Origin: a virus
Taxonomy: Duplodnaviria > Heunggongvirae > Uroviricota > Caudoviricetes
DNA: 64,000 bases
Direction: 5' to 3' (one strand)
IMG/VR virus record: IMGVR_UViG_2913147268_000005
The position numbers were made by a program, and so were the translations under genes. Within the stretch, counting starts at the first letter, position 1. Each line of letters starts with the position of its first letter. This document shows positions 4,276 to 47,537 of the stretch, piece after piece. The notes under the pieces are model-generated. The model saw nothing but the letters and a program-made list of their open reading frames with translations. It was not told where the DNA came from and searched no databases.

Positions 4276-4340
4276 AATAAGTCCTCACTATATAAAGATA
4301 TTCAGTGATGAGATAAATAATCAGTTTATTAAGAACGATA

Positions 4341-4703
4341 TTAACGACCTGCTGCGCGGAGTTTTCCGTCAGGTTCACCGGCAAGAGTCAGTAATTGTCC
4401 CTGGTCTTCCTGCAGAATAGTCAGGCGACCACCGCGATTGACATACATCGGCGTTTCGGTGGTGTCTTCTTCAGAAATTTTCCCGCGGTTAGTCGGGCGA
4501 ACATATGAGAGTTTGTGTTTGATTTTCACACGGTTCTCATCAAATGGTTCGATTTCCAGGTTGAGTGAGACCTTACCTTTGGTTTTCGTGTTCATCACAC
4601 CGGAAGCGACTTCACTGAGAACTGCGCCGATTTTGGTTTCAAATACGCCGCCGTCCAGCTCCCCGATAAATGCCTGCACATCAGTACTGCGTTCGCTAGC
4701 CAT
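4341..4703 (-). CDS. Hypothetical phage early protein (120 aa)
   Basis: Internal ATG at 4703 preceded by a GAGGAG RBS; the longer 226-aa frame upstream lacks coding character. Confidence 0.5.
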   Translation of the reverse strand: MASERSTDVQAFIGELDGGVFETKIGAVLSEVASGVMNTKTKGKVSLNLEIEPFDENRVKIKHKLSYVRPTNRGKISEEDTTETPMYVNRGGRLTILQEDQGQLLTLAGEPDGKLRAAGR

Positions 4704-4754
4704 TTTGCTGCTCCTCATCATATCGACCCTGCAAGGTCGGTTAGTTTCTCCACA

Positions 4755-4840
4755 AAACAGAGAAGAACACCTGCGGTGACTGCCGCCCGGATGGATTGGG
4801 TTATGAGCCCGTCGTCCGGTGATGCTCTTCTCTGTTTTGT
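4755..4840. repeat. Perfect 15-bp inverted repeat (ACAAAACAGAGAAGA / TCTTCTCTGTTTTGT) enclosing about 56 nt; candidate structured RNA or DNA element
   Basis: Read directly from sequence; lies in a roughly 470-bp stretch with no convincing ORF. Confidence 0.45.
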
Positions 4841-39587: not shown

Positions 39588-42410
39588 ATGACGGCAGAGT
39601 ACCTCAGGGACTGGCAACAACCGCGCCACGCAGTGGGGCGTGAAGGAACGGGGATCCCCGCTCCTGAATCCGCGCTTTCCTCCTGGCTGGATGCCTACCG
39701 GGCAGAGAACGAGCGCCGCCAGGAAATGGCTGATGCGGCGTTCTCAGCCACGCCGCTGGGCAACCTGATTAATAAAAGCCTGGACGCACAGGAAAAACAG
39801 GACAAAACCATCACACTGGCAGGAGACGCCAGAAAACAGGCACGTGGCGCGGTGGATGAAGCCATGGCCTCGCTGCGCCTGCTGCCGTCCTATCTGCGCG
39901 ATCCGCTTATTCGCCACCTCTCCTTCCTGCGCAAAAAACAGGAAGCCGATCGCCGGAAAGGCAAAAAGAGCTGGCAGGCGGAACGCTATGCACGCGGAAC
40001 CCTGCGCAAAATATTCGAACGTCTGGATAGCACTGACGGACGCTGGCTGACACCGGGTTATCGCTCCCTTGCCGGACGCGAACGCCTGGACGATTTGCTT
40101 TACCTGCCGCAGCTCAACAAACACCAGATACAGACGCTGGCCACCATGACGGCGGCGATGTTCAGCAGCACCTTCGAAAAACTCTGCGATGGCTTTGGCG
40201 CGACCGATGGCGAGCTGACCATGGATGTAACCCTGAAGGCGTATCAGATGCTGGCCCGCATGGCGTTACACCTGCACGCCATGCCTCCACATTATGACGC
40301 ACTGACAACAGACAAAGACCGGAGGAACGAACCGGACACGGAGCTGCTGCCGGGCGCAATCCTTCGCCTGACCTGTGCGGAATGGTGGAAACGCAAACTG
40401 TGGCTGTTACGTTGCGAGTGGAGAGAAGAACAACTCCGCGCCGCCTGTCTGGTTTCCAGAAAAACATCACCCTATCTGAGCCAGGACGCGTTAAGCGAGT
40501 TTCGCGCACAGCGCGAGAAAACACGCGATTTCCTGAAAAGTTTCATGCTGGAAAATGAAGACGGGTTCACGATTGATCTCGAGACAGTGTATTACGCGGG
40601 AGTAAGTAACCCGGTTCACCGTAAGGCAGAAATGATGGCCACCATGAAGGGACTGGAACTTCTGGCCGAAGCCCGTGGCGACAAAGCGGTGTTTCTGACT
40701 GTCACCTGCCCGTCAAAATACCACGCCACAACGGAGAACGGTCATCCGAATCCCAAATGGAACGGGGCCACAATGCGCGACTCCAGCGATTACCTGGTTA
40801 ACACGTTTTTTGCGGCGGTCCGCAAAAAACTGAACCGCGACGGCCTGCGCTGGTATGGCATCCGCACGGTGGAGCCTCATCATGACGGCACCGTGCACTG
40901 GCATATGATGGTCTTTGCACATCCGGAAGAAATCGACACCATTGTGTCCCATACCCGCGATATTGCCATTCAGGAAGACCGCCACGAGCTGGGCAATGAT
41001 ATTACTCCGCGCTTTAAGGTGGAGTATGTCGACGGCTCAAAAGGCACGCCAACCAGCTACATCGCCACCTACATCGGAAAGAACCTGGACAGCCGCGCCG
41101 TGGATGGCATCGACCCGAAAACGGGCAAGCCACGCGTGGACCACGAAACCGGAAAATCAATGGCCGAGAGCGTGGAGCGCGCCATCGGCTGGGCGCGCCT
41201 TCACCGGGTCCGTCAGTTCCAGTTCTTTGGCATCCCCTCCCGTCAGGTGTGGCGTGAACTGCGCCGCCTTGCCAGCCAGATGGCACGCAATCCGGAAGGC
41301 CCGCAACGGCTGAAAGATGATGCAATGGATGCGGTACTCGCTGCCGCCGATGCCGGGTGTTTTGCCACCTACATTGAAAAACAGGGTGGCGTGCTTGTTC
41401 CACGCAAGGACTACCTGATTCGCACCGCCTACGACCTCGCAGATGAGCTGAACGATTACGGCGAACAGAGCGTACAGATTTACGGGATCTGGTCACCACT
41501 CATCGGGGAATCCTCCCGTGTGTGCACGCATCCGGATAACTGGAAGCTGGTAAGACGTAAACCGGAAGCGGAAGACAGCGCCCGCGAAAATGGTTTTGAC
41601 CTTCAGGGCGGCCCTGCCGCCCCTTGGACTCGTGGCAATAACTGTCCCCGTGTACAGGAAACGGACAACAACGGGACAGAACAGCCGGAAGAACGGCCAG
41701 CACCGTGGCCGCAGCTCCCTGACGGCGTTGAAGTGAACGAATGGATGCGCTCACTGAAACGACACGAACGCCGGGCGCTGATGCGTTCGCTTCGTGACAA
41801 ACAGGCAAAAAACAGCAGCGATGAAATGCAGAGCTGGACACAGAGCCGCAAACAGCAGCGGCCTTTGCCTGATAACCACGAATTACTCGCTAAAGAATGG
41901 CGGGAGTCTGCTGAATCTCTCGGCCTGCATATCGGTGAACAACAGATGCAGCACCTGTTACGGGGCGGCAGTCTGTACGTTGACGGCAGCATCATTGCAC
42001 CGCAGGGATTTGAAATTGTACGCAAACCGGATACCCGCCCGGACAGCCGAATCACGCAGCTCTGGCAGCGCCTGAGCCGTAATCATGGCGTAAGCAGCAC
42101 GGAGATCCGCCATAACCCGGTCGCCAGCTATCTGGCACAGCTGGGGGCATCAGACCCTGAAGCCGCCGCACGCCTGGCATCCACACTTCAGCAGGGCCAG
42201 AACACCATGAAAACACCCGTTACCGTGCTTTCTGACATGCTGCGCGCCATCCGCGACGCAGAGCACGCACAGAGAATCAGTGAAACCACTGAACGCGCCA
42301 GCCGCAAAGCAGACCTGCTGCGGGGTGGCCTGACCAGTGGAAACAAAAAACAGACAGAAACGGGACTTACGAATCCCGTAAATGAGCAAAAAACGCGCAG
42401 CGATATATGA
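39588..42410 (+). CDS. Rolling-circle replication endonuclease, P2 gpA family
   Basis: 940 aa; HUH-type motif (GTVHWHMMVF) and paired tyrosines (SYIATYIGK). Confidence 0.8.
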   Translation: MTAEYLRDWQQPRHAVGREGTGIPAPESALSSWLDAYRAENERRQEMADAAFSATPLGNLINKSLDAQEKQDKTITLAGDARKQARGAVDEAMASLRLLPSYLRDPLIRHLSFLRKKQEADRRKGKKSWQAERYARGTLRKIFERLDSTDGRWLTPGYRSLAGRERLDDLLYLPQLNKHQIQTLATMTAAMFSSTFEKLCDGFGATDGELTMDVTLKAYQMLARMALHLHAMPPHYDALTTDKDRRNEPDTELLPGAILRLTCAEWWKRKLWLLRCEWREEQLRAACLVSRKTSPYLSQDALSEFRAQREKTRDFLKSFMLENEDGFTIDLETVYYAGVSNPVHRKAEMMATMKGLELLAEARGDKAVFLTVTCPSKYHATTENGHPNPKWNGATMRDSSDYLVNTFFAAVRKKLNRDGLRWYGIRTVEPHHDGTVHWHMMVFAHPEEIDTIVSHTRDIAIQEDRHELGNDITPRFKVEYVDGSKGTPTSYIATYIGKNLDSRAVDGIDPKTGKPRVDHETGKSMAESVERAIGWARLHRVRQFQFFGIPSRQVWRELRRLASQMARNPEGPQRLKDDAMDAVLAAADAGCFATYIEKQGGVLVPRKDYLIRTAYDLADELNDYGEQSVQIYGIWSPLIGESSRVCTHPDNWKLVRRKPEAEDSARENGFDLQGGPAAPWTRGNNCPRVQETDNNGTEQPEERPAPWPQLPDGVEVNEWMRSLKRHERRALMRSLRDKQAKNSSDEMQSWTQSRKQQRPLPDNHELLAKEWRESAESLGLHIGEQQMQHLLRGGSLYVDGSIIAPQGFEIVRKPDTRPDSRITQLWQRLSRNHGVSSTEIRHNPVASYLAQLGASDPEAAARLASTLQQGQNTMKTPVTVLSDMLRAIRDAEHAQRISETTERASRKADLLRGGLTSGNKKQTETGLTNPVNEQKTRSDI

Positions 42411-42486: not shown

Positions 42487-43446
42487 ATGAAAATTTGTAT
42501 CGACGACGGCTCCACCAACATCAAGCTGGCATGGACTGAGAATGGCGAACGCCGCAACGCCATCAGCCCGAACAGCTTCAAGTCGGAATGGTCTGCGCCG
42601 TTCGGTGGCATGCAGCCCGCGAACTACATGCTTGATGGCGTGCGCTATGGTTTTGATCCGGTTAGCGATCGCTTTGTCCAGACGACCGACACGCAATACC
42701 AGTACAGCGATGTGAATGTAATCGCCATTCATCACGCGCTGGTCAAATCAGGCATCACGCCACAGGAGGTGGATGTGGTTGTCACCCTGCCACTGAGCGA
42801 GTATTTCGACACAAACGCACAGCCGGACATGGCCAACATCAACCGCAAAAAAGCGAACGTTATGCGCCCGGTGGAATACCAGAACGGCGAAGCATTCACT
42901 ATCCGTAACGTGCGGGTTATGCCTGAATCCATTCCGGCTGGCTTTAAAGCACTGGCTGACATGAGTCCGTTTGAATCCCTGCTGATTGTGGATTTAGGCG
43001 GAACCACGCTGGATGTGGCAAAGGTTCAAGGGCAACTGGCAGGTATCAGCCAGGTGTTTTGCGATCCACACGTAGGCGTTTCCCTGATGGCCGATGCCGT
43101 ACTGTCGGTGATGGCCACTAACGGTATGCGCACCAGTCACCACATCGCCAATACCATTATCGAACATCGCCATGATGAAGCCTGGCTGCGCCAGCACATC
43201 CACAATGACGCGCATTACGCCAGCCTGATGGCGGTTATTCGTGAAAAGGAAGAAACACTGAAACAACGCGTGATCCGCGCGCTGGCGGTTTTTTCGGGTT
43301 ACGGGCGGGTGATGGTTGTCGGTGGAGGGGCGGAGATTGTGGCACCCGCTATCCGCGAAGTCTGCGGAGTTAATGCGACTTTCATCGCGGACGGGGTGCC
43401 ACAGTTTGCTCTGGTTAATGGGCTGTACGCAATGGACAAGGAGTAA
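42487..43446 (+). CDS. ParM/StbA-like actin-fold ATPase
   Basis: Phosphate-1 (KICIDDGSTNIKLAW) and phosphate-2 (LIVDLGGTTLDVA) motifs of the actin/Hsp70 fold; 319 aa. Confidence 0.7.
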   Translation: MKICIDDGSTNIKLAWTENGERRNAISPNSFKSEWSAPFGGMQPANYMLDGVRYGFDPVSDRFVQTTDTQYQYSDVNVIAIHHALVKSGITPQEVDVVVTLPLSEYFDTNAQPDMANINRKKANVMRPVEYQNGEAFTIRNVRVMPESIPAGFKALADMSPFESLLIVDLGGTTLDVAKVQGQLAGISQVFCDPHVGVSLMADAVLSVMATNGMRTSHHIANTIIEHRHDEAWLRQHIHNDAHYASLMAVIREKEETLKQRVIRALAVFSGYGRVMVVGGGAEIVAPAIREVCGVNATFIADGVPQFALVNGLYAMDKE

Positions 43447-43450
43447 ACCA

Positions 43451-43765
43451 ATGACGACACCAACCAGACGGATAAGTTTCTATCTGAAGCCCGCCGCCGT
43501 CAAGAGTGAACAGGAGGCGTGCAATTACCTCGATAGCCTGCCAGCCTCCGAACGCAGCCGCGCGCAACGCGCGGCCTTTCTGGCTGGGCTAGCGCTCATA
43601 AAGCGCAACCCAGCATTTGCCTACTGGATGGCCGAATGGCCAGAGGACAACCTCCCCTTCAATACCGTTAGCATCAAGGAAACATACCAGGATAATCAGC
43701 CTAGCGGAGTTGAATGCAATTTTTATAAAATAAAAAAGAATATTCAGACCTTATTCCCAGAATAA
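43451..43765 (+). CDS. Small protein downstream of the ParM-like gene (ParR-like adaptor candidate)
   Basis: ATG at 43451 behind a GGAGTAAACC RBS; N-terminal RISFYL beta-strand-like start; assignment is positional only. Confidence 0.4.
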   Translation: MTTPTRRISFYLKPAAVKSEQEACNYLDSLPASERSRAQRAAFLAGLALIKRNPAFAYWMAEWPEDNLPFNTVSIKETYQDNQPSGVECNFYKIKKNIQTLFPE

Positions 43766-43848
43766 TCTGATAATTGTATGTGAACTAATAAAATACAGAC
43801 CAACACATCATTCTGGCACCCTTGCTAACAGGGTGCCAATGTTTCAAA

Positions 43849-44691
43849 TCATGATGAAATTGCCGAAGTTTTTTTATCGTGCTGAAGTACCGCAAATGCC
43901 ATTAAAACCTCAAGAGAATAGCGGCGATAATACTTAACAAAACCATAATAAAATACTCGGGATGCAGCAATACAAAACAAGAGAAGAAAACAAAAAGGTA
44001 ACAGTCTGATATTTATATCTATTAAAAAGGATAGAAGGAGCAGGAACATAAGCAACCAGACTGAAGCGAGAAAAACAAATGTAATGTTTCTACAAAAACC
44101 ATACAAAGCAACATAGTTTTGCATTTTCACCTGATGATTTTTAGAATGTTCATACACATAATGATAAGCAAGGCGAAAAAGATCGCCCCTCAAGCCCTTA
44201 CGTCGATATAGCGTAGATACAGAAAAAACATTTATATAACCATCTCGTATTTGCGGCCAAAAGACTTTAATAAGTATAGAATGCAGTGTGGTTTTATGAT
44301 GTTCTGCTTTATCAAAAGCTGATACAGGAAATAAAAAAACTCCACGAATAAAATTAACTATACTGAACTTAGTATTATGTCGTTTTATTTTCAGGGAGCT
44401 TCTTTTAGAAAACAGATAAATTGAAGGATACCCAAGTTTACTGTTCATGTATTTTTCAATTAAACAGGATGATAGAATAGATATGAAGTGACCTGAAATA
44501 TATGATAGAACGATTAATACCACATATATAAATACACTTATTATTTCTTTATATTTCAGGATATGGTTAAGAATACCTTCTATATAAACAGGGTTAATTT
44601 CAATAGAAAACAAAAAAAGGATAAACAGGAATAACCCACCTGGAATTAGATAGCCCAAAAAGTCATAAAATGAAAACGGATTCTGTGTCAC
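43849..44691 (-). CDS. Multi-pass membrane protein (280 aa), AT-rich cargo
   Basis: GTG start behind an AGGGGGAAGT RBS; two N-terminal and two C-terminal hydrophobic helices around a ~120-aa loop; second gene of a two-gene operon. Confidence 0.55.
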   Translation of the reverse strand: MTQNPFSFYDFLGYLIPGGLFLFILFLFSIEINPVYIEGILNHILKYKEIISVFIYVVLIVLSYISGHFISILSSCLIEKYMNSKLGYPSIYLFSKRSSLKIKRHNTKFSIVNFIRGVFLFPVSAFDKAEHHKTTLHSILIKVFWPQIRDGYINVFSVSTLYRRKGLRGDLFRLAYHYVYEHSKNHQVKMQNYVALYGFCRNITFVFLASVWLLMFLLLLSFLIDINIRLLPFCFLLLFCIAASRVFYYGFVKYYRRYSLEVLMAFAVLQHDKKTSAISS

Positions 44692-44730
44692 ACTTCCCCC
44701 TGTGTTACTTGTAAATTAAAGGGTAAAACA

Positions 44731-45228
44731 TTATTTGTTTTTCCGTAAAGGATTAGCTTTCCATCTTCTTACTAACCATTCGAATTCTTGATATGTAGTA
44801 TCCGAATTAATGCTTTCTCTGATTGCTTTAATTAATGGCTCGGCAATATCATATGTCTCTACAACTGTTGTGTAAGATGTTCTTTTTATCATTTTTTCAT
44901 CATAAATACCTTCACGAATACTTACAGCAACTCGCTCGTAAAAATTTAAAATATATTGAAATTTTCGACGCTCGGCCATTTCTTCATCTGTTATTATGCA
45001 ACCATCACAAGGAAAAACATAAGAACGAAATGATTTGCCTGAACGATGCACTTGTTTCAGGGTATGCAATGACTCTATATATTGCATATCTTGCCGACTC
45101 TCAAAAAGAAAGTTGGCCGTTTGAGTTTTTTTTGCGGTACGCACATTGTAGATAATGGTTCCAATGGCAACCAAAACGCCAAGCAGAACAATAGCATTGC
45201 TGATGATTTGTAGTGTTATTGGGTTCAT
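44731..45228 (-). CDS. N-terminally membrane-anchored protein (165 aa), AT-rich cargo
   Basis: One N-terminal TM helix (LQIISNAIVLLGVLVAIGTIIY) then a soluble domain containing CDGC; first gene of the operon. Confidence 0.55.
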   Translation of the reverse strand: MNPITLQIISNAIVLLGVLVAIGTIIYNVRTAKKTQTANFLFESRQDMQYIESLHTLKQVHRSGKSFRSYVFPCDGCIITDEEMAERRKFQYILNFYERVAVSIREGIYDEKMIKRTSYTTVVETYDIAEPLIKAIRESINSDTTYQEFEWLVRRWKANPLRKNK

Positions 45229-45248
45229 CCTATTTCATCCATAAAAAA

Positions 45249-45275
45249 GGCGGGGAGCAAATCCCCGCCTCATTA
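45249..45275 (-). terminator. Hairpin (GGCGGGGA/TCCCCGCC) plus U6 on the minus strand, about 15 nt upstream of the 44731-45228 RBS
   Basis: Perfect 8-bp stem with 5-nt loop; T-run on the minus strand. Confidence 0.55.
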
Positions 45276-45426
45276 GAGGTCAACGTAGCTTAGAAACCAT
45301 CAAATTCATCATACATTTTTTTCATATCAACCCCCTCATAGAAATCATAACCACGTTTTGTGGTTTTTGTGACGTATAAACTACATCAAAGGCAAGCCAC
45401 GGTCAAATATATAGGCATGCTTACCT

Positions 45427-45453
45427 GCACAAAAGTGCACAAATTTGCACAAT
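45427..45453. promoter_or_regulatory. Three direct TGCACAA repeats with 10-bp phasing
   Basis: TGCACAAaagTGCACAAattTGCACAA read on the plus strand; a TATATT -10-like hexamer lies downstream on the minus strand. Confidence 0.5.
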
Positions 45454-45951
45454 TTTTTTGAACGACTTTTTACCCTTCCGGCCCGCATGGCGGCTGGATC
45501 CGTCAAGGATCCGTGCGTGCACAAAAAAACGCGCTTTTTCTGCGCGCAGGTGACGGGGGAACAGCCCGCGTTTCAGGGGGTAAATAGCATTCCCTGAACG
45601 ATGTCGCAGAGACACAACAGAATGGCCATATTTCTCACGCTGAGCATGAAAAAGGCGTGAGGGCTTTTGATTTGATGGGGTGAAAGGTAAGGCCGTCAAA
45701 ATCGCACTGAGGCAGCGAGAACATGCAGTCAACGCGGTGGAATTGCGTAAGAGTCTGACCGTCGATGGTGGCGATAAACTGGAAGGCGTCGTGAAATTAT
45801 CTGATTGATACAGGAGCTGGAGAGCCGGGGCATAAATTTTTTATGCCCCGGCGAAGCAGCAGACAAGCGAAGCGCGTCAGCGATACGGCACCTTGCCGAC
45901 CATACTTCATAAGTGCAAAATACGAGCAAAGAAATCAATGGAGGCTGTCTT

Positions 45952-46476
45952 ATGGTCATTAATTACAAGCAGTTAAGAGAAAAACGGGAGCAGGTAAAGG
46001 AGAGCTTTCGCCGCAATGAAGATCTGACCCCGCTTGTACGCCTTGCCCAGGGCATTGTTGATGCTTATGAAATCTCGCTGGAGCTGCCATCACAGACCTG
46101 GACAGATAGCGACGGTAATCGCCAGCATTACGTTTCATGCGGACTGGAAGCAGCCGAAGGATTTCGCAGAATGCCTTTATCCCAGATCCCTGCCGCTACC
46201 CCCAAAGCACGGGGCAGCAATGATGAGCGAAAACTGACTTTTAGTATTGAAACGGTGGTTGACGACACACCTGGCGAAGTCGCGTTCGTGCACACTCCTG
46301 TTTCGATCGCAATGTATAACGATGAAATACAGGTTCGCGTTAATAATAATATCGTGCCACTTAAAGAAGGTAATTCACCCTACACCACCGTTTGTGAAGC
46401 CATTCAATATTACGTTCTCTCTGAAATTGATAATCTCAAGCCTGACGGCACCCAGAAAATGGTTCAACTCTGGTAA
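45952..46476 (+). CDS. Hypothetical protein (174 aa)
   Basis: ATG at 45952 with GGAGG RBS 7 nt upstream; followed directly by a strong terminator hairpin. Confidence 0.5.
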   Translation: MVINYKQLREKREQVKESFRRNEDLTPLVRLAQGIVDAYEISLELPSQTWTDSDGNRQHYVSCGLEAAEGFRRMPLSQIPAATPKARGSNDERKLTFSIETVVDDTPGEVAFVHTPVSIAMYNDEIQVRVNNNIVPLKEGNSPYTTVCEAIQYYVLSEIDNLKPDGTQKMVQLW

Positions 46477-46483
46477 AAAGGAC

Positions 46484-46510
46484 AGCCCCATCACGGGGCT
46501 GTTTTTTCAT
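46484..46510. terminator. Bidirectional intrinsic terminator (CAGCCCC-ATCAC-GGGGCTG plus T6)
   Basis: Perfect 7-bp stem flanked by an A-run and a T-run between two convergent genes. Confidence 0.6.
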
Positions 46511-47537
46511 CAAGAAGAGCATAAGAGTTAAAACGGATCACCTCTTCGCCAAGCCAGTCATTGATGTGCTTCATAGCCTCCATAACGGGCATCAGCTCGT
46601 TAATTGCGTAAACCCGCGCTGCCTTCTCCACATCGCCAAACGCACTTTTTTCGCCCGGCATCGCCCCCATCAGTTGCGGCGGAACGCGGTGCGCAGCCAG
46701 CACATCATCACGGGATGCCGCCTTAACATTCATGAATTCATCTTTTGCGGTGATCTGCTGGAACGGCAAAATTTGCACCCCCTCTTTGCCCCCGTTGGGC
46801 GCATGAATGAGCACGTTTTTAAACGCACCACCACCACGTGCCCCCTGTAGCGTTTCTTTCAGGGAGTCCATGCTTTCGCGGTTTACCTGCGCTGCACCGA
46901 TGTAGATGATGCACCCGGCGTGGGATCCGTTGTCGTAGTACAGTTTTCTGAACATGTCCGCCGAATGAGAAAGGCTGGCCGAGAGTAATGCGCCAAGATA
47001 TTCCGGCATGCCGTAGATTTCCTGGTTAATATCCGGATTCATCAGGTGGCACACTTTGCCAGGACGAAACTGAAACGCGTCCTTGCCATCCTGCACATAC
47101 CACCATGATTCAAGATCGCTTCCGCGTCGCATGTATTTCGCCAGGGCGTGCCGTAATTTAAGCGGTTCGCCGAGCATATTGCTTCGAAGCTCAAGGAATG
47201 CGTTACCGAACACAAACCAGTCCAGCGCCAGCGCCGAGAAATCCTGCCGGGAAAGCAGCGGGTGCGGGATGTAGCAACCGAGTAATACATTGCGCTTAAA
47301 GTAAAGCGCAGACTGATGCCAGGACGTTTGCCGGGCTGCTCTTGCCAGACCGTACCAGTCCACCGGGGTTTCATACCACCGCCCGTTATCAGCACAGTAC
47401 ATATTGTCCAGCAGGTCATGCCCGGTCAGGCGATAAGGACCATCAAATGTGAATGCACTGAGCGATGATTCTTTCCTGAGCGCATCAGCGAGATCAATGC
47501 GTGAACTCATGCGCACTTTTTTATTTTTTCTGCTCAT
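46491..47537 (-). CDS. Portal protein (P2 gpQ-like)
   Basis: 348 aa; adjacent to and divergent from the scaffold/capsid genes, as in P2. Confidence 0.85.
   Translation of the reverse strand: MSRKNKKVRMSSRIDLADALRKESSLSAFTFDGPYRLTGHDLLDNMYCADNGRWYETPVDWYGLARAARQTSWHQSALYFKRNVLLGCYIPHPLLSRQDFSALALDWFVFGNAFLELRSNMLGEPLKLRHALAKYMRRGSDLESWWYVQDGKDAFQFRPGKVCHLMNPDINQEIYGMPEYLGALLSASLSHSADMFRKLYYDNGSHAGCIIYIGAAQVNRESMDSLKETLQGARGGGAFKNVLIHAPNGGKEGVQILPFQQITAKDEFMNVKAASRDDVLAAHRVPPQLMGAMPGEKSAFGDVEKAARVYAINELMPVMEAMKHINDWLGEEVIRFNSYALLDEKTAP

Follow-up and report, generated by a model that had tools for sequence, protein, structure and literature searches.

The locus considered here raises the question of whether two adjacent genes for membrane proteins in a P2-like prophage form a two-gene anti-phage system. 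The genes are located in IMG/VR virus record IMGVR_UViG_2913147268_000005, of which a stretch of 64,000 nucleotides was analysed (the window), and an initial annotation made from the sequence alone had proposed them as an undescribed, all-membrane two-gene operon for defence. Our analysis demonstrates that the locus is abundant and already catalogued cargo, composed of a DUF4760 module and a Csx27-like module. Judging from their relatives, the two are independently mobile single-gene modules (morons) that have been joined in one lineage. We tentatively conclude, with a probability of about 0.5, that they act as two independent, membrane-acting phage-exclusion determinants expressed by the lysogen. 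The two genes are the following.

44731-45228, minus strand: DUF4760 gene; N-terminal transmembrane (TM) helix and a ~130-aa all-helical domain, predicted to be cytoplasmic

43849-44691, minus strand: Csx27-like gene; GTG start, Shine-Dalgarno sequence GGGGGAAG, four TM helices

Both open reading frames (ORFs) are present in the ORF list where the initial annotation had placed them, one of 165 aa with an ATG start and one of 280 aa with a GTG start. The gap from the DUF4760 stop (44731) to the start of the 280-aa gene (44691) is 39 nt long, and a terminator scan of it yielded no terminator-like site. Measured against natural variants, the ratio of nonsynonymous to synonymous polymorphism (pN/pS) is 0.07-0.12 for DUF4760 and 0.26 for the 280-aa gene, and the synonymous sites of DUF4760 are near saturation while the protein remains ~80-88% identical. 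Since pN/pS is 0.07-0.26, the homologue sets are large and the Pfam score described below is high, both ORFs are genuine genes under purifying selection, not chance ORFs. The topology that had been proposed, i.e. one N-terminal TM helix in the 165-aa protein and 2+2 helices around a loop in the 280-aa protein, is borne out: hydropathy gives a single N-terminal hydrophobic stretch in the former and hydrophobic blocks at ~8-78 and 198-252 in the latter, and the helices of the AlphaFold2 (AF2) models concur in both cases. The AT-richness noted by eye is equally real, with a GC content of 0.27-0.39 over ~43700-45350 compared to 0.50-0.62 in the flanking replication (gpA), ParM and portal genes.

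Relatives of both proteins were sampled as one genome per species and from IMG/VR, and every locus was searched with profiles of both families. Around DUF4760 relatives of ≤90% identity in 19 genome loci, the 280-aa family is found within 5 kb in none (0/19), and DUF4760 is likewise missing from all nine loci of 45%-identical 280-aa relatives (0/9). Nine of the 76 viral loci of the 280-aa family contain DUF4760, and nine of the 67 viral loci of DUF4760 contain the 280-aa family; in either set these are all ≥95% identical to the window, and the others have no partner (0/67 and 0/58, respectively). Across the 162 loci sampled outside the window, from genomes and phages, the families stand together only in near-identical copies of this element. 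The idea of a two-gene system is thus contradicted by the 19 genome and 125 viral loci of more distant relatives, where the families never occur within 5 kb of each other. Therefore, conservation of the pair in E. coli reflects a single recently spread element, not repeated co-selection.

The separate distributions are equally distinct. DUF4760 is usually monocistronic. It stands solo in the same slot of P2-like prophages of Kluyvera, Xenorhabdus, Dryocola and Citrobacter; in Pseudomonas phage D14E it directly follows cI, and in an Acinetobacter phage it neighbours the integrase gene. In ten P2-like phages a Dam-type methylase gene converges on it. In the chromosomes of several genera (Enterobacter, Atlantibacter, Franconibacter, Rahnella and Buttiauxella), it is found between core genes as an AT-rich islet of one gene. 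In Enterobacter and Klebsiella prophages, the 280-aa family, whose solo copies have their own AT-rich upstream region, immediately precedes xis/int, whereas in an E. coli lambdoid prophage it follows a yfdR-like gene. Elsewhere its members adjoin, each in another prophage, AbiU (E 7e-112), a PD-T4-6/Stk2-like kinase with a PP2C-like phosphatase neighbour, or a type II restriction enzyme with a cytosine methylase. In two prophage loci of the family, PIN-like proteins of 447 aa and 301 aa, both uncharacterised, are neighbours as well.

The initial annotation could place neither protein in a described family, a statement that no longer holds for the 165-aa protein and needs revision for the 280-aa protein. 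The 165-aa protein scores 119.3 bits with Pfam PF15956 (DUF4760), against a gathering cut-off of 25 (E 1.8e-34), and its residues 12-156 align to profile positions 2-141 of 141. It corresponds to phrog_2284 and to RefSeq WP_001068329, which carries the same DUF4760 name. The AF2 model (pLDDT 94, pTM 0.81) shows a long N-terminal helix, composed of the TM segment and an extension, and a compact helical domain. Because the residues following the TM helix (RTAKK) are basic, with 23 K+R in the remainder of the protein, the domain is placed in the cytoplasm. It is accordingly predicted that the DUF4760 protein crosses the inner membrane once and has its helical domain in the cytoplasm.

The nearest solved folds to this model are the EP domains of EDS1, PAD4 and SAG101. 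Foldseek puts EDS1/PAD4 first with query TM-scores of 0.51-0.57 and probabilities of ≤0.98, at E-values of only 0.25-0.6, and its other matches reach TM-scores of ≤0.30. The EP domain of the EDS1 family is the receptor for TIR-made ribosylated nucleotides, with a heterodimer pocket that binds pRib-AMP or ADPr-ATP. The DUF4760 model shares the EP-type all-helical fold; unlike the EP proteins (PF18117), however, it has only a TM anchor at its N-terminus and no lipase-like domain, is ~100 residues shorter and has no TIR neighbour. A PF18117 search of the protein gave no match at E ≤1, a PDB sequence search with the DUF4760 profile returned nothing, and hhalign against a 50-sequence EP alignment, run with shallow and deeper DUF4760 alignments, gave probabilities of 4.4% and 3.8% (P ~0.01) for a short local match. 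Since sequence methods give no homology support, we grade the likeness of the modelled domain as a fold-level resemblance, not membership. Our literature search found no paper on a bacterial counterpart of the plant EP domain. The sole local match in hhalign pairs DUF4760 residues 105-130 with AtEDS1 428-472, aligning GIYDE..MIKR / TSYTTVVETYDIAE with GVFDEVLGLMKK / TRYRRLVEPLDIAN, the signature motif of EP domains. Between the halves of this match EDS1 has an insert of 17 residues with a conserved LPDEFEG, which resembles the DEF(D/E)GF of the micro-ORF upstream of DUF4760 (see below); the likeness is insignificant (P ~0.01) and may be coincidence.

For the 280-aa protein (phrog_12528), hydropathy and AF2 place helices at 8-27, 48-86, 187-224 and 230-278. 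The loop between the hydrophobic blocks (79-197) is basic, with 20 K+R against 6 D+E, and this central loop and both termini are predicted to be cytoplasmic. The family comprises 1,114 clusters at 50% identity with E ≤1e-3, including 242 with E ≤1e-30, and is strongly conserved in the N-terminal QNPFSxYDFLGYLIPG and in GDLFRLAYHY, HQxKIQNYVALYGFCRN and FYxGFVKFYRRY. The PADLOC Csx27 model, which has no curated threshold, matches the protein itself weakly over residues 6-244 (E 1.1e-5, 23.9 bits) and 45 of 60 diverse relatives at E ≤0.01 (best 1.3e-8); a second VI-B-associated model, tm_4, also matches 15 of the 60. Pfam searches of the protein and the 60 relatives gave scattered chance matches only and no family, NCBIfam has no match for either the 165-aa or the 280-aa protein, and the AF2 model of the latter (pLDDT 70) yielded no informative fold match.

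Csx27, an accessory protein of type VI-B1 CRISPR-Cas13b, is like the 280-aa protein in size and in its four predicted TM helices. As the relevant passage of PMC7642515 relates, citing Makarova 2019, Csx27 is a four-TM member of an expansive family of proposed channels, and Csx27-family proteins are proposed to be single-stranded DNA (ssDNA) channels tied to natural transformation. Unlike Csx27, the 280-aa protein occurs by itself as a prophage moron: neither the window nor ~85 relative loci showed a cas13b, CRISPR array, natural-transformation, ubiquitin-like or WYL-HTH neighbour. Because neither cas13b nor a published partner gene is present in the examined loci, we file the protein as putatively Csx27-like rather than as Csx27.

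A leader precedes the DUF4760 gene and comprises the following features.

45344-45373, minus strand: sigma-70-like promoter candidate (GTCACA, 18-nt spacer, TATGAT), upstream of the micro-ORF

45290-45325, minus strand: micro-ORF of 11 codons, MKKMYDEFDGF-stop, with Shine-Dalgarno sequence GAGGGGG in front, read from the sequence

45241-45271, minus strand: intrinsic terminator with a 10-bp GC-rich stem (GAGGCGGGGA/TCCCCGCCTT), a 5-nt loop and T6, from a terminator scan and RNA folding

The micro-ORF stop is followed by an 18-nt spacer and the terminator hairpin, and the terminator ends ~15 nt before the DUF4760 ATG. The terminator leaves no space for a promoter before the ATG, and therefore DUF4760, and in this element the 280-aa gene as well, would have to be expressed by read-through. 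Of 71 distinct regions upstream of DUF4760, 60 contain a micro-ORF ending in D-E-F/Y-D/E-G/W-F-stop, and this leader is kept with DUF4760 homologues at ~38-45% identity in other orders. Over the last six residues of the 60 leaders, D is found in 56, E in 59, F/Y in 59, D/E in 60, G/W in 60 and F in 51. The codons vary synonymously (GAT 41 and GAC 15; GAG 30 and GAA 29; GGC 32 and GGT 20), and the peptide sequence is under selection at the amino-acid level. Between the leader stop and the DUF4760 start, a terminator-like hairpin is present in 59 of the 60 leader-bearing loci, with stems that are unrelated between clades yet always self-complementary. A leader common to both modules was considered and rejected, as solo copies of the 280-aa gene have no such leader.

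This arrangement is reminiscent of leader-peptide attenuators (pheL, tnaC and the erm leaders), in which a short ORF conserved up to its stop is likewise followed by a terminator before the regulated gene. It differs from them in that 14-22 nt (up to 46 nt) separate the stop codon from the hairpin, that the micro-ORF also occurs without a downstream gene, and that we found no conserved antiterminator pairing: RNAalifold on 21 leader regions recovered the terminator only. In a single-sequence fold the leader Shine-Dalgarno sequence pairs with a conserved ACCTCT spacer, for which covariation is not established, and an Rfam search of 43700-46000 gave sub-threshold noise only.

Two further observations concern the leader. 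An inverted repeat ACCAC(N5)GTGGT (ACCACAAAACGTGGT, 45349-45365, minus strand) is located just upstream of the leader Shine-Dalgarno sequence, where it overlaps the promoter-like -10 hexamer. The repeat is found again, around other loops, at several DUF4760 loci (ACCACAGAAAGTGGT, ACCACTGCGCGTGGT), and it could serve as an operator or form a small hairpin. Some ST131 genomes and viral contigs carry an insertion of IS421 (IS4 family) within the terminator hairpin at ~45247-45260 (GGGGATTTGCTCCC / ATAAGCGCTAACTTAAGG...). Since this insertion parts the leader from DUF4760 and breaks the terminator, it could alter the expression of both membrane proteins.

The micro-ORF is not confined to DUF4760. 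A degenerate DNA pattern for DEFDGF-stop matches at least 120 IMG/VR contigs, compared to a chance estimate of a few, and has a single match in the window (45290-45325). Among the matches listed there are 88 distinct contexts, of which 73 are ORFs of ≤25 codons; 20 of these 73 precede DUF4760 and 53 do not. MNDEFDGF-stop is found in another P88-like cargo slot before unrelated genes, MYDEFDGF-stop between Q-like and lysis genes of lambdoid phages, and MKDEFDGF-stop or MAKRDEFDGF-stop before a terminator and then a convergent gene; jumbo phages carry 21-codon versions, and tandem DEFEW/DEFDGF units also occur. Outside DUF4760 loci a terminator often comes after the micro-ORF, and in some cases a convergent gene does. 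A PHROGs search with the 21-aa micro-ORF products gave nothing. Because it is widespread beyond DUF4760, the peptide is probably functional in its own right. The C-terminal tip of SSB (...MDFDDDIPF-COOH in E. coli, a sequence that we checked) is acidic-aromatic with a C-terminal Phe, as is the peptide (DEFDGF-COOH); the likeness is one of composition and end group only, and we offer it as a lead.

The element that hosts the locus is a P88-like prophage (Xuanwuvirus, Peduoviridae, P2-like), common in E. coli ST131. A 3.2-kb stretch is 100% identical in three sequenced P88-like phages and is present at ≥99% identity in ~275 of 5,426 complete E. coli genomes, among them named O25b:H4-ST131 and further human-isolate strains; the tally of these genomes with the identical DNA is 279. 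The borders of its cargo slots were determined by blastn against P88, PhiR44_2, Shae_phiSM and Chuche, which gave, together with the flanking genes, the following arrangement.

39588-42410: replication endonuclease, P2-type (gpA)

42487-43765: ParM/StbB-like partition pair, between the replication and portal genes

43597-45425: variable cargo slot A, with the divergent stbB-like 3' end, the Csx27-like gene, DUF4760 and the leader

43815-43837: hairpin GGCACCCTGTTAGCAAGGGTGCC where the stbB-like gene and the 280-aa gene converge, read from the sequence

45426-45880: conserved backbone block with the cos region, 455 bp, 93-99.8% identity in all four phages

45881-46515, plus strand: slot B, a second indel of 635 bp with the 174-aa gene (45952-46476)

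46491-47537: portal gene, followed by terminase, scaffold and capsid genes

The backbone can be aligned as far as 43596, within the stbB-like gene, and again from 45426 (45402 in Shae_phiSM). The linear phage records begin at the equivalent of ~45426-45473, and the conserved block is taken to hold the cos end for this reason. The position between the replication gene and the portal, as initially annotated, is therefore correct, with the ParM/StbB-like pair lying there as well, and the site is a cos-proximal hotspot of exchanged cargo in which all four phages differ. Slot A holds a ClpX-zinc-finger-like gene and one other in P88, four small genes in PhiR44_2, a 268-aa and an 88-aa gene in Chuche, and DUF4760 alone in Shae_phiSM, a Citrobacter phage. 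The hairpin at 43815-43837 has no strong T run; it is likely to mark the end of the minus-strand unit, its role as a terminator being read from its place. As for the stbB-like gene itself, its homology to other P88-like phages is lost ~170 nt before the stop (43597-43765). With homology ending at 43596, the C-terminal third of the stbB-like protein is lineage-specific, and it was probably swapped in together with the cargo.

The initial annotation had suggested that the adjacent 174-aa gene may belong to the same cargo. We rejected it as part of the membrane cassette, for it forms an independent 635-bp indel beyond the conserved 455-bp cos block. Slot B is missing from P88, Shae_phiSM and Chuche, where 45880 is joined straight to 46516, and PhiR44_2 has the slot B gene alongside different slot A cargo; the gene is placed outside the cassette on these grounds. 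Its product is phrog_5091, with no Pfam match and no defence (PADLOC) match, and a strong hairpin (46482-46502) lies 3' of the gene.

The locus had been regarded as undescribed, which proved incorrect: exactly these two protein sequences are listed in Table S5B of Rousset et al. 2022, annotated with 1 TM for protein 1 and 4 TM for protein 2, as system #3 (Pfams DUF4760) with 1,102 occurrences in the P2 hotspot. Only the partition pair (4,592) and a restriction-modification (RM)-like system rank above it. The same arrangement is given in Table S5A, with accessions WP_001068329, WP_000193205 and WP_000236495, as in RefSeq here. That study describes the hotspot as the one holding tin/old, and several cargo systems from it as phage-protective. 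Both sequences are absent from the validated and additionally tested systems of its Tables S2A/S2B; eight further P2 systems were tested there and three were active, this pair not being among them. What is new in the present analysis is the independence of the genes, the link to the Csx27 family, the leader with its terminator, the DEFDGF micro-ORF family and the EP-like fold.

Other records of the two families are sparse. A literature search found no paper with the WP accessions of the two proteins, none with FDEFDGF, and a single one that touches on DUF4760, in passing. DefensePredictor (PMC13092281, file 3) lends outside support to a defence role: among its predicted novel defence genes are larger E. 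coli proteins annotated as DUF4760 (332-339 aa), which are weakly similar to PD-Lambda-6. No entry for the 165-aa protein occurs in the part of that supplementary table covered here, nor does the protein match the PADLOC PD-Lambda-6 models. In phage vB_EcoM-705R2 (ON470623), the DUF4760 gene (4332-4829) is unannotated, and antisense hypothetical ORFs stand in its place, equivalent to 44835-45155 on the plus strand of the window; this looks like a mis-annotation.

How could the two modules exclude phages? Module 1 consists of the promoter-like site, the micro-ORF, the strong terminator and DUF4760. Most transcripts of the lysogen would stop at the terminator, and read-through would keep the membrane proteins low or conditional. 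Module 2 is the Csx27-like gene, set 39 nt behind DUF4760 in this element. Each protein would act alone at the inner membrane. The cytoplasmic helical domain of DUF4760 may sense an infection cue, upon which self-association via the TM helix may perturb the membrane, resulting in abortive infection or late exclusion; the Csx27-like protein may have a channel-like or DNA-entry-blocking role. Within phage exclusion, an abortive, membrane-perturbing action is a possibility that we favour only tentatively, and a block of entry or of another exclusion step seems less likely still. As had been remarked before, no catalytic motif is recognisable: searches of both membrane proteins with Pfam, NCBIfam and PADLOC gave no enzyme domain. 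The exclusion reading is favoured by the hotspot position with its differing slot contents, by purifying selection on both genes, and by the moron-like placement of both families in temperate phages, repeatedly at hotspots with known defence genes alongside. A precedent from the same hotspot is Rst_2TM_1TM_TIR of the P2-like phage AC1 (Rousset 2022), whose small TM proteins without enzymatic domains are thought to be membrane effectors. The present slot differs from it in having no TIR ORF, and hhalign of DUF4760 against the AC1 TM protein gave a probability of 0.4%.

Several observations weigh against phage exclusion. PADLOC 2.0, with models for old, tin, Kiwa, RexAB, PD-Lambda-6 and others, detects no defence system; at E ≤1 the only matches are the weak Csx27 match, PprPIWI (E 0.056) and PDC-S35 (E 0.014, DUF4760), and we judged the latter two to be noise. 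We know of no experimental tie of either family to phage resistance. Nearly all the conserved mass of both proteins is predicted to be cytoplasmic, and on these models almost nothing of either would lie in the periplasm, a poor fit with a classical injection block from outside. The promoter candidate matches the consensus at 9 of 12 positions, which is not above shuffle expectation, and a single minus-strand transcription unit with both genes co-transcribed is suggested solely by their spacing. The neighbours of the DUF4760 islets are transporters, nrdAB-yfaE/glpT and two-component regulators, with no defence genes; the occurrence of such islets between core genes therefore makes a housekeeping or stress role possible. 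Finally, the cassette adjoins ParM/StbB, which brings in an addiction or maintenance role that we consider unlikely.

In such a role, DUF4760 would be a membrane toxin held in check by low read-through or by an abundant, unstable 11-aa peptide, stabilising a prophage able to persist as a ParM/StbB plasmid. The order of micro-ORF, terminator and effector would indeed give a large excess of the peptide, as in toxin-antitoxin stoichiometry, the peptide sequence is selected at the amino-acid level, and the cassette is directly beside the partition pair. However, most units of DUF4760 and leader, including the chromosomal islets, are without partition genes. The micro-ORF is also present in at least 53 phage contexts that lack DUF4760, and in some of these it is the last gene ahead of one that converges on it; for this reason it is no dedicated antitoxin. 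Less plausible yet is an obligate two-component membrane defence in which the 1-TM and 4-TM proteins would function solely as a joint complex. In its favour, the two genes are neighbours on one strand, the 39 nt between them hold no terminator, hundreds of E. coli genomes keep both at 95-100% identity, and Rousset 2022 grouped them as one system; yet in the 144 more distantly related loci, all outside this lineage, they do not co-occur. Solo copies of each also exist, DUF4760 in the same slot of related phages among them, and where the 280-aa family stands elsewhere it brings its own upstream region and lacks the DEFDGF leader.

A non-defence accessory function, i.e. lysogenic conversion, envelope physiology (stress tolerance, transport or modulation of DNA uptake) or a part in the phage's own cycle, seems somewhat more probable than either of these, and still doubtful. 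It would accommodate the DUF4760 islets between core metabolic and transport genes of five genera, the absence of any defence model match for either protein and, in the passage of PMC7642515 mentioned above, the proposal of ssDNA channels tied to natural transformation for the Csx27 family. On the other hand, both families are strongly tied to temperate-phage accessory positions and hotspots, both are AT-rich relative to host and phage backbone, and both are missing from the sequenced virulent phages found; AT-rich accessory placement in temperate phages is the usual signature of morons serving the lysogen against other phages. A more specific proposal, which we put on a par with addiction, is that DUF4760 is the bacterial and phage counterpart of the plant EP domain, a membrane-tethered cytoplasmic receptor of a small acidic molecule or peptide. 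The micro-ORF peptide (x-D-E-F-D/E-G-F-COOH) may then belong to the switching mechanism, as a nascent-chain sensor that gates read-through at the terminator or as a ligand in trans.

Phage exclusion by two independent determinants thus remains our preferred reading, and its consequences concern a common cargo. In the E. coli P2-like hotspot, only the partition genes and the RM-like system are more frequent cargo than this pair, which is present in ~5% of complete E. coli genomes, chiefly those of the pandemic ST131 lineage. As the modules are separate, each gene is to be judged alone, with and without the leader. Side results that could matter more widely are the leader and terminator travelling with DUF4760 across genera, the phage DEFDGF-COOH micro-ORF and the link to the EP fold; if the EP-like receptor reading were true, the SSB-tail-like peptide, encoded alone in many unrelated phages, would represent an unrecognised phage micro-protein family. 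If either gene excludes phages, the finding would bear on phage therapy against ST131 and would add single-gene membrane determinants that detection tools miss today.

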